Positions 1 through 60,382 of a stretch of 64,000 nucleotides of DNA are shown here, piece by piece. Under the pieces are notes generated by a model that worked only from the letters and a program-made list of their open reading frames with translations, made no database searches and had not been told where the DNA came from. Source of the stretch: a virus (Duplodnaviria > Heunggongvirae > Uroviricota > Caudoviricetes); IMG/VR virus record IMGVR_UViG_3300029828_000006, positions 27,904-91,903 of that record. The stretch is one strand, 5' to 3'. How positions within the stretch are numbered: position 1 is the stretch's first letter; the number at the start of each line of letters is the position of its first letter. Position numbers and translations under genes: made by a program.

Positions 1-139
1 TGGAGTCCATTAATACAAAACCATCCGGTAGTAGAGTAATTATCAGGCCAGGCCCATACACCAACACTCCATACTTTACGGCGGCACACTTCAGCCTGTC
101 CTTCCCTGATTTTTTTTACCGCCTGCATGATGTCCATCA
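1..139 (-). CDS. partial ORF (start in window, 3' end beyond left edge); C-terminal-module protein of the antirepressor locus
   Basis: ATG at 137-135 overlaps the stop of the Rha ORF (TGATG coupling); product MDIMQAVKKIREGQAEVCRRKVW... resembles the 53166..53462 product (RERIKTGYAIVCRRVSW...). Confidence 0.35.
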
Positions 140-844
140 CTCACCTCCCCAACCGATCACCTGGAATTGCCCCATTTTGGGGTGATACCAGCGTTTTCCT
201 CGGTGTTCAGCCTCCGACATCATCCGGTTAAAAGCATTCATGAAGGGAGATAAGGCCACGATTGAACGACGCGACAATACCCCCTCTGGAGTTAAAAACT
301 CATGCGTATCTGTGGGGATCCGGTAAGCGTTGACCAGGTTGCGGCATTTGGCTTCGGTCAGGCCGCATTTTGCCGCCAGCTGGCGGTAGCCAATGTAACC
401 TTCCGGCATGTTGCCCTTCTTGATTTGCTCGACGGTTTCTACCACTTGGCTAACCTTTGACTCAACAACATGAAGCCGCTTTTGCTGCTGAACTGCATTT
501 GCAGCCATTGCGGCGATCATCTCTATTTCGGTCAACGGCTGGCGTGCTTGTTCTTCCAGTTCGCGCCAGCGGTCCACCAGCCGGGCGGTGAATTCGGGAG
601 AGAGCTGCGCAACGACAATAATGCTGTCTCGTTTGCCTTGCTCGCCTTCGAAGACGTAAGCCTCGACACTACGGCGTAGTCCTAAGTTATTGATTTTTTC
701 GAAAACCTGCAATGCAGGAAGTTGAATAACTCCAGATTTAGCCAGGCGCTCTATTGATATTTTTACGTTATCTGGACGACTTCCCACCAGCTCCGCGATC
801 TCAATGCTGGTCATTGATGGCTTTTCAAGAATGCAGATATCCAT
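137..844 (-). CDS. Rha-family phage regulatory protein / antirepressor (Ant-like)
   Basis: N-terminal MTSIEIAELVGSR...ISIERL Rha-type motif; overlaps upstream Icd-like ORF as in P1 immI; ~90% DNA-identical paralog at 53470..54108. Confidence 0.7.
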   Translation of the reverse strand: MDICILEKPSMTSIEIAELVGSRPDNVKISIERLAKSGVIQLPALQVFEKINNLGLRRSVEAYVFEGEQGKRDSIIVVAQLSPEFTARLVDRWRELEEQARQPLTEIEMIAAMAANAVQQQKRLHVVESKVSQVVETVEQIKKGNMPEGYIGYRQLAAKCGLTEAKCRNLVNAYRIPTDTHEFLTPEGVLSRRSIVALSPFMNAFNRMMSEAEHRGKRWYHPKMGQFQVIGWGGE

Positions 845-1068
845 CAGTGTGCCTCCGCAATTCCGGGATTGGTAATATTGCGATACCAGGGATTAGTGTT
901 TGGTTGTGGGGAAGTAGAGAAACGACCAGTAAGAACACCATGCTGATCAGGGATCAGAGAACGGGCTTCTTTTTCGGTTGCGGCAATTGCGAAGTGATCG
1001 CAGTGTTTTTGCAGGGAGTGGAAACGCCAGATGAATTCTGGACGTGAGCAAGGATTGGCATTAACCAT
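844..1068 (-). CDS. Icd-like host cell-division inhibitor (small immI protein)
   Basis: 74 aa, FIWRF motif, immediately upstream of and overlapping ant-like gene; SD GAGG 8-11 nt upstream of ATG. Confidence 0.5.
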   Translation of the reverse strand: MVNANPCSRPEFIWRFHSLQKHCDHFAIAATEKEARSLIPDQHGVLTGRFSTSPQPNTNPWYRNITNPGIAEAH

Positions 1069-1129
1069 AGTTACGGCCTCACTAACAGGTTTAACAACCT
1101 GCTACCCGCTGTCAAACAGGTGGCAGGAC

Positions 1130-1240
1130 GTGACAGGGTTGACAGACTGGCGTTAGTGAAACCAGCAGGCCGAAGCCTCCCCATCACGCCCCACCATAAT
1201 TCGGGCGTAACGCGGTTTACGGACACAAAAATACCGCAAT
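1130..1240 (-). ncRNA. candidate c4-type antisense RNA element in icd/ant leader
   Basis: Leader segment (+ coords 1152-1160 gttagtgaa) is the reverse complement of the icd RBS region (1077-1086 cctcactaac); exact RNA ends not determinable. Confidence 0.25.
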
Positions 1241-1417
1241 ATCGGAAATCTGCGGTTGTCCGCACTAACATTCAGGCTGTCAAACCTGGTCGCAGAATTT
1301 GCTACGACGGCATGAATATAAGCCTGAAAACATGGAAGATCAACTAAAAATTTCAGCAATGGATGACTTCAGTCGATGATGCAGATCATACATTCCGATT
1401 TAGAAACAGCAAATTAA

Positions 1418-1429
1418 TTTTCTAACACA
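1418..1429. promoter_or_regulatory. operator-like motif TTTTCTAACACA (putative C1-type repressor site) upstream of immI-like leader
   Basis: One of at least 7 copies of the same asymmetric motif found in intergenic regions upstream of operons; flanked by partial inverted copy TTAGAAA at 1400-1406. Confidence 0.4.
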
Positions 1430-1481
1430 GATTATCGAGCGAGCATTTTCCGATCATTGGGATGTTTTGTAGACACACAGG

Positions 1482-33416: not shown

Positions 33417-33549
33417 GGTTAAGCCCTAAATTCGGGCGCGGCGTGAAGGTTCTTTTGACGGGCTAACAATACCTACTTTGTGATTTAGTCAATAGGTTTA
33501 GTAAAATAAAATATATTAACACGCATGTTGTTATGTGATTTAATTTTAG

Positions 33550-33563
33550 TTTTCTAACACAAA
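33550..33563. promoter_or_regulatory. operator-like motif TTTTCTAACACAAA 12 nt upstream of ATG 33575
   Basis: Same motif family as the other operator-like sites. Confidence 0.45.
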
Positions 33564-43454: not shown

Positions 43455-43492
43455 TTTGTGTTAGAAAATACATATTAATTATCTAACACAAA
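43455..43492. promoter_or_regulatory. pair of inverted operator-like motifs upstream of rdgC
   Basis: TTTGTGTTAGAAAA (43455-43468) and TTATCTAACACAAA (43479-43492); first copy lies 10 nt from rdgC ATG. Confidence 0.5.
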
Positions 43493-54480: not shown

Positions 54481-55121
54481 TAAGTATGGCTGTGCGATGG
54501 CATGACACAAAAAAAGACGCGTTCGGCGTCTGTGTCGCCTTTGACATTATCCGGGGTTCCAATCCCGGCACCCGTTTTTCTAAGGTGCCGTAGAAATATA
54601 CCCCACGATAATGCCAGGGCGCAACAGTCAGTATTTTATGCTTTGGCGGATTTCTTCCGGGCTTGCTTGCAGGCGTAGGCCATTGCTTTAGCTTTCACTT
54701 CATCCAGCTTCCCGGTGATCACTTCTTTTCCGAGAGTGACAAACCAGTCATAGCAACCGCCAGTAATGTTCTTGATTTGAAAGTTGAGGTAGCGAACAGT
54801 CATTTTGACACCCCCAGCGCGAGTAAAGAATGCAGATTATCGCGTGAGTGGTGGACGACGAGTGATGGGAAAAGACTGTAGTTGTTCATAGTGTAGTGAC
54901 TCCTTGCTTTCGGAGCCGCCATCGACTGTTCCACGGTCTGGTGGCGGCGCAATAAAGGCTGGAACACCGTGAGTCAACGGGGGCTTTTCAGCCACCTATA
55001 TTGCACCGCCATAGGTATGGCGGCGGCAATAATACGAAAAACTAAACAGTTTGTCTCAAAAAGTTGACCGGTGTGCCAATCGGTAGTGAATGTACATCGG
55101 TGAAATTCACAATTCAACTTA

Positions 55122-55136
55122 AAATGTTAGAAAACT
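55122..55136. promoter_or_regulatory. operator-like motif (reverse orientation, AGTTTTCTAACAT) far upstream of second immI-like module
   Basis: Motif family; abuts stop of ref-like gene. Confidence 0.35.
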
Positions 55137-55713
55137 AATTTATCAATTCAATCGCCATCTGATACAACGTCATTTCATCGGCATTGTGCCGCATGAAATC
55201 TGCTTTTCCGCCTATTTTTCCGTCAGCATGAACAGGGACCAGCCAGGGATATTGTTCTCGGACCTCGGCTGGCGCTGCGTACTGGTGGTGCCATTTACAC
55301 AAAGGGAGGACATATTTATGCGCGTTCTCTACCGTTCTCCCGAAGATATGGTGCAGGGATACCACAGGGCTATGTTGCCCGTGAATATGGCAGGCAATGC
55401 AGGGGAGAGTACCGATAGCGGTCTGTATCCGGCGTTCATCGGCTGTGAGTGATCTGCCCTTCAGGCCGCGTGACGTGCGTGTTTTTTTGGGCGGAGCGGA
55501 TACCGCTTTATCTTTTCTCCGCTGTTCATATTGCTTTGCTTTTTCAATTTTCTTTTGCCGATATTCAGGCGATGCGGCTTTTTCTCTCGCTCGCTGCTGC
55601 TGGCGTTGAGCTTGTTGAAGGCGCTTTGCCCTTTGTTCCTCTCGCCAGGCTGGGTCAGCCAATTTTTGCATGGCTTTTTGTCTCTGTTTCTCCCAATAGC
55701 TCTGTTTCTGCAT
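55135..55713 (-). CDS. ref: HNH endonuclease, P1 Ref-like
   Basis: 192 aa; Lys/Arg/Gln-rich N-terminal ~80 aa then LPCIACHIHG...SLHHI.GRT...LPLCKWHHQ...AAPAEVREQYPWLVPVHADG HNH core. Confidence 0.6.
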   Translation of the reverse strand: MQKQSYWEKQRQKAMQKLADPAWREEQRAKRLQQAQRQQQRAREKAASPEYRQKKIEKAKQYEQRRKDKAVSAPPKKTRTSRGLKGRSLTADERRIQTAIGTLPCIACHIHGQHSPVVSLHHIFGRTVENAHKYVLPLCKWHHQYAAPAEVREQYPWLVPVHADGKIGGKADFMRHNADEMTLYQMAIELIN

Positions 55714-55781
55714 GATGGCAGTCTCTTACTTTTCAACGATTTTTCTATGATTGATCATAACCGTTAGATATTCAAAATTGA

Positions 55782-55796
55782 TTTTCTAACACAAAA
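55782..55796. promoter_or_regulatory. operator-like motif TTTTCTAACACAAAA in divergent ref / early-operon promoter region
   Basis: Motif family; partial inverted copy GTTAGATA at 55763-55770. Confidence 0.45.
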
Positions 55797-60351: not shown

Positions 60352-60382
60352 GTTAGAACATTGATTTTAGTTTTCTAACATA
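60352..60382. promoter_or_regulatory. operator-like inverted pair (GTTAGAA ... TTTTCTAACATA) upstream of 60423
   Basis: Motif family. Confidence 0.4.

Follow-up and report, generated by a model that had tools for sequence, protein, structure and literature searches.

A very probable P1-type immI module with a c4 antisense RNA in a D6-like phage-plasmid

Does the minus strand at the start of this 64,000-nt stretch of phage DNA (the whole stretch is called the window below) carry an immunity module in which an antisense RNA controls an anti-repressor gene, and how closely does it follow the immI region of phage P1? Work on P1 and P7 established the biology of c4, icd and ant decades ago. Our analysis indicates that positions 1-1480, part of a D6-like phage-plasmid, very probably constitute a complete P1-type immI module, encoded on the minus strand. 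The P1-type c4/icd/ant system is an already known one, and such regions have been published for D6-like elements: homologues of c4, icd and the antirepressor, together with a second c4/icd region, were described in a D6-like plasmid (PMC6799933). In this sense, the locus mainly confirms that a classic regulatory RNA can be recognised from raw sequence.

Genes and RNA elements of the module

The segment is 100% identical to the Escherichia coli plasmid pF16EC0589-1 (CP088384.1), a D6-like phage-plasmid, across the 2,500 bases tested, and 96.1% identical over 1-2500 to the orf18-orf19 region of Escherichia phage D6 (found also in D6-like plasmids, e.g., pYU39_89), with which it shares genes, operator and promoters. 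The protein-coding genes are the following:

844-1068, minus strand: icd, encoding a 74-aa Icd-like cell-division inhibitor; leader cistron for ant (NF033153, phrog_1426)
137-844, minus strand: ant, encoding a 235-aa Rha/Roi-type putative anti-repressor (open reading frame list; phrog_63)
1-137, minus strand: small orf17-like ORF, truncated by the window start (D6 annotation; 65 aa in the full plasmid CP088384.1)
1482-2444, minus strand: repL-like gene for lytic replication, adjoining the module on its upstream side (D6 annotation)

The succession of icd (1068-844), ant (844-137) and the truncated orf17 bears out the first-pass annotation, which had read an immI-like order of icd, Rha/Ant and a third ORF. 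Its name for the latter, a C-terminal-module ORF, is apt because orf17 (phrog_7385, E 1.4e-48) is the counterpart of the C-terminal domain in the longer, fused Ant that a second, orthogonal module encodes at 53.2-54.6 kb; the same family matches that domain. The icd product matches NCBIfam NF033153 (phage_ICD_like) with 40.3 bits (cut-off 25), and is 61% identical to P1 Icd across 61 aa. For the ant product, the best family is phrog_63, 'anti-repressor Ant' (E 2.7e-47), with weak Pfam matches to Phage_pRha and HTH_24 and a winged-helix/Rha-like region at the N terminus. We considered homology of this protein to P1 Ant1/2 and ruled it out, as the protein is a Rha-like member of phrog_63 and gave no tblastn match; in the 64-kb window, P1 C1, Coi, Ant1 and KilA had no tblastn match at E 1e-2 or better. 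Outside the window, a c1-like gene is carried by the remainder of plasmid CP088384.1 and by D6, and this D6-type C1 shares just 21% identity with P1 C1. The genes are tightly packed: the ant ATG (844-842) overlaps the icd stop codon (846-844) as TGATG, with GGAGG located 7 nt 5' of the ant ATG, and the orf17 ATG (137-135) overlaps the ant stop codon (139-137), again as TGATG. The icd/ant overlap is compatible with translational coupling.

Upstream of icd, we identified in silico the RNA elements listed below:

1119-1195, minus strand: c4 antisense RNA, 77 nt (RF01695; ends transferred from the P1 annotation)
1159-1152, minus strand: b', UCACUAAC, in the loop of c4 hairpin 2
1145-1139, minus strand: a', CUGUCAA, in the single-stranded c4 junction
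1077-1086, minus strand: b2 target GUUAGUGAGG, including the icd Shine-Dalgarno GAGG (1080-1077); identical to the annotated P1 b2 and covarying with b'
1109-1116, minus strand: a2 target UUUGACAG, directly 3' of c4 (P1 annotation; covariation with a')
1263-1269, minus strand: b1 target GUUAGUG, upstream copy of the b target, covarying with b'
1277-1284, minus strand: a1 target UUUGACAG, the a target repeated upstream, within a hairpin loop (RF03163; covariation with a')
1227-1256, minus strand: terminator-like hairpin ACCGCA/UGCGGU with a 12-nt loop and a U5 run (1231-1227) behind it; located between b1 and c4, at the position of the isrK-type terminator

The presence of a c4-type antisense RNA had been proposed from the letters alone, and the Rfam search was positive: the C4 antisense RNA family (RF01695) matches at 1116-1201 on the minus strand with 68.8 bits (gathering score 45), spanning model positions 1-87 of 87, and the a1/b1 target motif (RF03163) matches at 1269-1321, also on the minus strand, with 54.4 bits (gathering score 46.7). 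From 1195 to 1119, c4 is identical to the mature c4 of phage P1 at 77 of 77 nucleotides. It is predicted to fold with -42 kcal/mol (z -4.55), the minimum-energy structure coinciding with the centroid, into the known shape: a closing stem and two hairpins, the second of which exposes b' in its loop, with a' left unpaired in the junction. The targets a2 and b2 are placed between c4 and icd, whose ATG is at 1068. The b' sequence (UCACUAAC, 1159-1152) is complementary to b2 (GUUAGUGA, 1086-1079), which overlaps the icd Shine-Dalgarno, and a' is complementary to a2 (1116-1109). The complementarity noticed at the outset, between plus-strand 1152-1160 (gttagtgaa; RNA strand UUCACUAAC) and the ribosome-binding region of icd, amounts to eight Watson-Crick pairs and one G-U pair with the minus-strand GUUAGUGAG (1086-1078).

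Covariation of c4 and its targets

Complementarity between two short segments may arise by chance, or may be the decayed remnant of a system without present function. When the 50-nt spacer was shuffled, a complement of at least 7 nt to the c4 loop appeared in 2.5% of the shuffles, and a single match is therefore only mildly unusual. The joint pattern is a different matter, however: among 20,000 shuffles, a'/a2 together with b'/b2 occurred three times and the full set of four target sites never. We then turn to relatives of the module, for which a viral contig collection was scanned with a plain 25-mer and the six a/b sites of each locus were located by MAFFT column mapping. Across 114 related loci, a', a1 and a2 co-vary, as do b', b1 and b2, in 15 allele combinations with the three partners always matching; the first-pass annotation had named lack of conservation in homologues as evidence against its reading, and we observed the opposite, compensatory covariation. 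In 13 representative sequences, 100% of the cells were paired, versus 28-48% in slid controls, and compensatory double changes occurred in 8 of 15 pairs at the downstream targets and 8 of 14 at the upstream ones. Cognate b' and b2 form 9-10 contiguous pairs and non-cognate combinations mostly 3-7, the exception being D6 b' with L085 b2, which reaches 9 pairs aided by G-U wobble. The 15 combinations and the complete pairing thus show that the pairing is under selection and does not reflect chance. Rfam scores lie far over threshold, and the icd, ant and orf17 frames are all intact. We consider chance or decay extremely improbable, and, within the reach of sequence analysis, this explanation is refuted by the covariation. 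With its natural allele series, the cassette also supplies a set of compensatory mutations, ready for studies of antisense specificity.

The distribution of alleles raises a broader possibility. There are at least three a alleles and at least eight b alleles, recombining freely to give the combinations observed, and the same a/b alleles are found upstream of both P1-type Ant1/2 and D6/Rha-type Ant. D6-like genomes carry two mutually orthogonal cassettes each. Compared with D6, the window element differs at one site pair in module 1 (D6 has b' CGUAAGU with b1/b2 ACUUACG) and at both in module 2, where the a and the b alleles are different. Given these allele differences in both modules, we predict heteroimmunity between the window element and D6 at each of the two. 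We tentatively suggest, as an idea that we hold to be possible but not probable, that the c4 cassette is a combinatorial 'immunity barcode' shared across two otherwise unrelated phage-plasmid families. If this is true, P1-like and D6-like plasmids with an allele in common, P1 itself included, would show cross-immunity at the RNA level, and the 7-nt kissing sequences would be under strong diversifying selection. Since the exact P1 c4 allele is present here, mutual repression of the anti-repressor genes is to be expected between P1 and this element.

Transcription, proposed control and alternative outputs

The intergenic space between icd and repL (1069-1481, about 400 nt) contains three further features:

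1315-1343, minus strand: promoter equivalent to P1 P51b (P1c4), with -35 TTGATC at 1343-1338 and -10 TATATT at 1320-1315 (promoter scan)
1385-1412, minus strand: putative second promoter adjoining the operator-like site, with -35 TTGCTG at 1412-1407, a 16-nt spacer and -10 TATGAT at 1390-1385 (read from the sequence)
1413-1429, minus strand: operator-like site TGTGTTAGAAAATTAAT, 17 bp, a candidate D6-type C1 binding site (dispersed motif)

The hexamers of the first promoter align with those of the annotated P1 P51b and form conserved islands in 18 distinct D6-like leaders. Both hexamers of the putative second promoter are likewise conserved islands across diverged D6-like leaders; the promoter scan was silent here because the -35 matches the consensus at three of six bases only. 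Judging from the promoter positions, transcription from the promoter with its -10 at 1320-1315 would give a leader of about 240 nt, and transcription from the operator-adjacent promoter one of about 310 nt, so that the leader of about 400 nt described in the first-pass annotation fits the intergenic space but not the transcript. The operator-like motif that it placed at 1418-1429 is real but longer, extending over 17 bp. Eight copies are present in the window, against 0.41 expected at up to three mismatches, and all are intergenic; one of them is near repL, at 2616-2632. A bivalent site is located at 43457-43490. In D6 and the rest of the plasmid, the motif is found upstream of c1, lpa, c4, repL and ref; its sites precede the genes that are under C1 control in P1, and its core is invariant among diverged D6-like leaders. 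The P1 C1 operator consensus ATTGCTCTAATAAATTT has no match in the 64-kb window at up to three mismatches, and the candidate operator is therefore not of the P1 sequence type. Control by C1 through the 17-bp site is a candidate mechanism, suggested by the motif derived here and by its location at the place equivalent to the P1 operator. As a candidate, the site lets a regulon of the D6-type C1 repressor be proposed and tested.

Combining these elements, we propose the following course of events. A transcript would start at the promoter with its -10 at 1320-1315, and, when the C1-type repressor is absent, probably also at the operator-adjacent promoter. It would comprise, in order, a1, b1, the terminator-like hairpin, c4, a2, b2 with the Shine-Dalgarno, icd, ant and orf17. 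The 77-nt c4 RNA would be released from it by processing, which in P1 is carried out by RNase P. By pairing of its b' and a' with b2 and a2, c4 would cover the icd ribosome-binding site and block icd translation, a1 and b1 presumably serving as duplicate upstream targets. In P1, an untranslated icd permits Rho-dependent termination. Since ant also starts on the icd stop codon (TGATG), the block of icd would keep the anti-repressor off, and the prophage would stay repressed. The a' and b' sequences, here the exact P1 allele, would determine the specificity of immunity. For processing of c4, translational repression and Rho-dependent polarity, we follow what has been published on P1, and it is likewise by analogy that the Rha-type Ant would inactivate the D6-type C1.

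Two alternatives concern how the module is switched on and what it delivers. The leader resembles isrK, and an extra activating layer may therefore exist: a short a1/b1 RNA, terminated at 1256-1227, would switch on icd-ant translation, either by acting in trans on a long silent transcript or by titrating c4. Such an inducible switch would complement c4 repression. The precedent is IsrK of Salmonella Gifsy-1, which in its short form opens an inactive structure, activating orf45-anrP, with translational coupling given by an AUGA overlap (PMC4825925). The terminator-like hairpin with its U5 run occupies the corresponding place between b1 and c4, although a terminator scan was silent on it (1256-1233), because its loop exceeds 8 nt. 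The isrK family (RF01394) matches module 2 above its gathering score of 50 (54510-54588, 61.3 bits), whereas the match in module 1 falls under it (1227-1308, 43.5 bits). When the entire leader is folded, 1100-1085 joins the region of the a1 hairpin in a predicted long-range helix of 16 bp, 91.8% paired in 13 homologues versus 21-50% in slid controls; its covariation, however, is no greater than in shuffle controls, and half of the helix is lost in D6. To our knowledge, no a1/b1 RNA ending at such a terminator has been described in P1. On balance, we regard an IsrK-type layer as possible but doubtful.

The other alternative accepts a P1-like c4-icd cassette with a payload other than an anti-repressor of C1. 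Together with orf17, the Rha/Roi-type protein would instead act as a regulator that binds DNA, or as an effector directed at the host, and the module would gate another output, as in the activation of antQ by AnrP of Gifsy-1 or in the case of HK97 Roi. This is consistent with the lack of similarity of the ant product to P1 Ant1/2 or KilA, with its winged-helix/Rha-like N-terminal region and with the similarity to HK97 Roi noted in the D6 annotation; at the homologous position, Gifsy-1 encodes AnrP, a transcription activator (PMC4825925). Against it, phrog_63 is by name an anti-repressor family, a label that is itself an annotation, and the module retains both its place and its control logic beside C1-type operators. 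We find such a payload unlikely, slightly more so than the additional RNA layer, and retain repression of a putative C1 anti-repressor by c4 as the preferred reading.

Comparison with Gifsy-1, P1 and P7

Like the isrK-orf45-anrP region of Gifsy-1 (PMC4825925), the module has a two-hairpin leader with a terminator-like element, a downstream RNA (processed to about 80 nt in Gifsy-1, and predicted to be processed here), and a small leader ORF joined by an overlapping stop/start to a gene for a Rha-like 'anti-repressor'. It differs in the isrK score of module 1, which is below threshold, and in having no antQ output; moreover, the mechanism published for Gifsy-1 is activation by a short RNA, not repression by c4.

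The correspondence with P1 is much closer. P1 immI is laid out as promoters P51a and P51b, the operator Op51, a1 and b1, c4, a2 and b2, icd, and ant1/ant2. In our module, a1, b1, a2 and b2 are the same in sequence, order and spacing; between a1 and the start of icd, only two bases differ, both in the stem of the a1 hairpin, and the P1 features map one to one. In both, b2 lies over the icd Shine-Dalgarno and the start codon of ant shares bases with the icd stop; the P51b hexamers and the N-terminal halves of Icd are homologous, and an operator, here a candidate one, sits at the -35 of the upstream promoter, P51a with Op51 having a layout similar to that of the putative second promoter and operator here. 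Nucleotide homology is nevertheless confined to 957-1328, from icd codon 37 to the P51b spacer. Ant is of the Rha/Roi type, unrelated to Ant1/2, and is followed by a separate orf17; there are no adjacent sim genes, and the operator differs from the P1 C1 consensus. While repL is located upstream of c4 here, in P1 kilA-repL lies downstream of ant. The likeness to P1 immI claimed in the first-pass annotation thus holds for the c4-icd-ant core, with ant of another type, and does not extend to the whole neighbourhood.

The immI region of P7, which is heteroimmune to P1, shares the architecture and the c4 scaffold with the module. Its alleles are different, a being UUAGCAG with CUGCUAA and b being GAUUGUG with CACAAUC. 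The module carries the P1 alleles, and we therefore predict it to be of the P1 immunity type at immI, rather than of the P7 type.

Gene content and RNA elements of the module

All genes in positions 1-2444 of the window lie on the minus strand (ORF list). Over its first 2,500 bases, the window shows 100% identity to the E. coli plasmid pF16EC0589-1 (CP088384.1, 91.9 kb) and 96.1% identity to Escherichia phage D6, whose record labels the matching genes orf17, anti-repressor Ant (similar to HK97 Roi), Icd-like protein, and RepL. On the basis of this identity and of the matching annotations, we assign the window to a D6-like phage-plasmid. We aligned the annotated P1 immI region to the window and found a counterpart for each P1 feature.

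Genes and RNA elements of the first module (a1 to b2 from the P1 alignment)
to 137, minus: small ORF, truncated at the window start
137-844, minus: Rha-like ORF, 235 aa
844-1068, minus: Icd-like ORF, 74 aa
1068, minus: icd ATG
1069-1481: intergenic region, 412 bp
1086-1077, minus: b2, GUUAGUGAGG
1116-1109, minus: a2, UUUGACAG
1145-1139, minus: a', CUGUCAA
1159-1152, minus: b', UCACUAAC
1195-1119, minus: c4, 77 nt
1269-1263, minus: b1, GUUAGUG
1284-1277, minus: a1, UUUGACAG
1343-1338 (-35 TTGATC) and 1320-1315 (-10 TATATT), minus: P51b-equivalent promoter
1429-1413, minus: 17-mer operator-like site, TGTGTTAGAAAATTAAT
1482-2444, minus: repL-like ORF, 320 aa

An Rfam scan identified a C4 antisense RNA (RF01695) at 1116-1201(-), with 68.8 bits versus a gathering score of 45; it also scored 1269-1321(-) as an a1/b1 target motif (RF03163, 54.4 bits versus 46.7). 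The predicted c4 fold has the published shape, a closing stem and two hairpins (-42 kcal/mol, z -4.55); b' occupies the second loop, and a' the junction. The first-pass annotation had proposed a c4-type antisense RNA from the complementarity of 1152-1160 to 1077-1086; the Rfam match agrees, and this complementarity corresponds precisely to the pairing of b' with b2.

The 74-aa ORF matches NCBIfam phage_ICD_like (40.3 bits versus a cut-off of 25) and is 61% identical to P1 Icd across the first 61 residues. The 235-aa ORF matches phrog_63, "anti-repressor Ant" (E 2.7e-47), and, weakly, Pfam Rha and winged-helix families. Since P1 Ant1 and KilA, used as queries, had no match anywhere in the window, we consider this payload gene analogous, not homologous, to P1 ant. 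A TGATG overlap links the icd stop to the ant start (846-842) and, again, the ant stop to the orf17 start (139-135). orf17 (phrog_7385) corresponds to the C-terminal domain of a longer fused Ant in a second module, which bears out its earlier description as a C-terminal-module ORF.

Conservation of the pairings and a second module

In shuffled sequence, a loop complement of at least 7 nt arose by itself in 2.5% of cases (50-nt spacer), a'/a2 and b'/b2 jointly in 3 of 20,000, and all four target sites jointly in 0 of 20,000. Comparison with relatives is stronger evidence against chance than these shuffles. Searching IMG/VR with a 25-nt exact c4 core returned 119 stretches, and 114 sequences in total could be aligned. 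Their alleles, of 3 a types and at least 8 b types, occur in 15 combinations, and the three partners (x1, x', and x2) are matched in every one. The refuting condition set by the first-pass annotation, complementarity lost in homologous elements, is therefore contradicted decisively, which supports its reading. Across 13 representative sequences (alignment A2), the downstream and upstream pairings are both 100% paired, versus 28-48% for slid controls, with compensatory double changes at 8 of 15 downstream and 8 of 14 upstream pairs. Non-cognate b'/b2 combinations mostly form only 3-7 contiguous pairs, versus 9-10 for cognate ones; one of them, D6 b' with L085 b2, reaches 9 with the aid of G-U wobble.

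The window holds a second complete c4-type module at 54588-53166, on the minus strand.

Elements of the second module
54588-54510, minus: isrK-type a1/b1 leader with terminator (RF01394, 61.3 bits)
54465-54378, minus: c4 (RF01695, 77.1 bits)
54323-54108, minus: icd2
54108 (start), minus: ant2

Its alleles (a, UUGGAAC with GUUCCAA; b, GUCAAAGG with CCUUUGAC) have no relationship to the alleles of the first module, and for this reason the two modules should be orthogonal. Between D6 and the window, 6 of 6 sites in this module have changed, in a matched compensatory manner. One extra C in the C run around 53492, relative to the intact 313-aa D6 orf82, divides ant2 into ORFs of 212 aa (54108-53470) and 120 aa (53528-53166); this may reflect a frameshifted pseudogene, a homopolymer sequencing error, or slippage-prone expression.

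Predicted promoters and operator

P1 nucleotide homology ends within the P51b-equivalent promoter, at 1328 in the spacer separating its -10 from its -35, and the P1 operator consensus is absent from the window. The operator-like motif initially placed at 1418-1429 proved to be part of the 17-mer at 1429-1413, which has eight copies in the window (at most 3 mismatches) versus 0.41 expected, all eight intergenic. The other copies (TRTGTTAGAAAAYTAAW) lie at 2616-2632, 33545-33561, 43457-43473, 43474-43490, 55123-55139, 55777-55793, and 60366-60382; those at 43457-43490 form a back-to-back (bivalent) pair, one copy precedes repL and another a ref-like HNH gene (55713-55135). Across the D6 genome and the rest of CP088384.1, high-scoring 17-mers also precede the c1-like repressor gene, by 14 nt, as well as lpa, c4, repL, and ref. 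The same operons (c1, lpa, c4, repL, and ref) are, as far as known, under C1 control in P1. The copies look like the regulon of a D6-type C1 repressor, which would bind them; its gene lies outside the window, and the protein is distantly related to P1 C1 (21% identity, E 2e-8).

Among 18 distinct D6-like leaders, otherwise diverged, the conserved islands are the operator core, a TTGnTG/TATGAT hexamer pair (1412-1407 and 1390-1385, directly downstream of the operator core), and the P51b-like hexamers. Given these islands, the layout mimics P1, with a putative operator at the -35 of a putative upstream promoter and a putative downstream promoter outside the operator, which could keep c4 expressed in lysogens.

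Regulation and relation to known systems

The P1 mechanism is the best-supported reading of module 1. The present analysis itself establishes that the RNA belongs to the c4 family and that the pairings exist, whereas c4 processing, translational block, Rho-dependent polarity, and Ant-C1 antagonism are features of P1 that we carry over from work on that phage and from its record annotations. By analogy, one transcript would carry c4 and its targets, and c4 would be processed out of it; b' and a' pair with b2 and a2, which would occlude the icd ribosome-binding site and block translation, so that the coupled ant would not be expressed. The a/b sequences would set immunity specificity.

The leader also resembles isrK, the Salmonella Gifsy-1 leader RNA (1227-1308, 43.5 bits, below the gathering score of 50). 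The silent long transcript of Gifsy-1 is switched on by a short leader RNA that ends in termination (PMC4825925), and the resemblance raises a comparable activating layer, as rival or addition to c4, which we regard as possible but rather doubtful. A terminator-like hairpin with a U-run (1256-1227) would suit it, as would a predicted 16-bp long-range helix that joins the a1 hairpin region (1273-1288) to 1085-1100 (minus strand), 91.8% paired in 13 relatives; however, the covariation of this helix in those relatives is no greater than in controls.

The 1085-1100 side of the helix is the spacer between a2 and b2, and an invariant UU partner in the helix fits both a alleles (GA or AG) through A-U and G-U pairs; the helix as a whole is similar to "structure A" at the IsrK locus. 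Immediately 3' of b1 lies a small hairpin (GCGG ACAA CCGC; 1256-1263, minus strand) whose 3' arm doubles as the 5' arm of the terminator-like one (1233-1256; ACCGCA ... UGCGGU, followed by U5). The two hairpins are therefore mutually exclusive, and because of this termination might be affected when c4 pairs at b1.

As to the c4 mechanism itself, a D6-like plasmid has been reported to carry an ImmI-related region (c4, icd, antirepressor) and a second c4/icd region (PMC6799933). The immI-like module of the first-pass annotation is confirmed as an observation and supported in its interpretation; it is correct but already known, its biology ordinary and described before. A search of the literature apart from the primary D6 paper turned up no account of how large the allele repertoire is or how backbones share it. 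Identical a/b alleles precede both P1-type Ant1/2 and D6-type Ant, and the window carries the exact P1 allele, which predicts RNA-level cross-immunity between P1 and the plasmid. P1-family phages have in common with the window only 957-1328 (372 bp, 87-93% nucleotide identity), from the P51b-like promoter spacer to icd codon 37, and the flanks have no megablast similarity to them; this confinement indicates a mobile regulatory cassette placed before unrelated anti-repressor genes.

The P1 c4 is identical to the 77-nt c4 of the window, the a and b alleles are the same, and between a1 and the start of icd the two differ at two bases only, both in the a1 hairpin stem. D6, in contrast, has b' CGUAAGU with b1/b2 ACUUACG, and P7 has a UUAGCAG and b GAUUGUG. 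By all RNA-level criteria tested, module 1 falls within the P1/P7 c4 family, departing from that type only in its payload protein, gene neighbourhood, and operator sequence.
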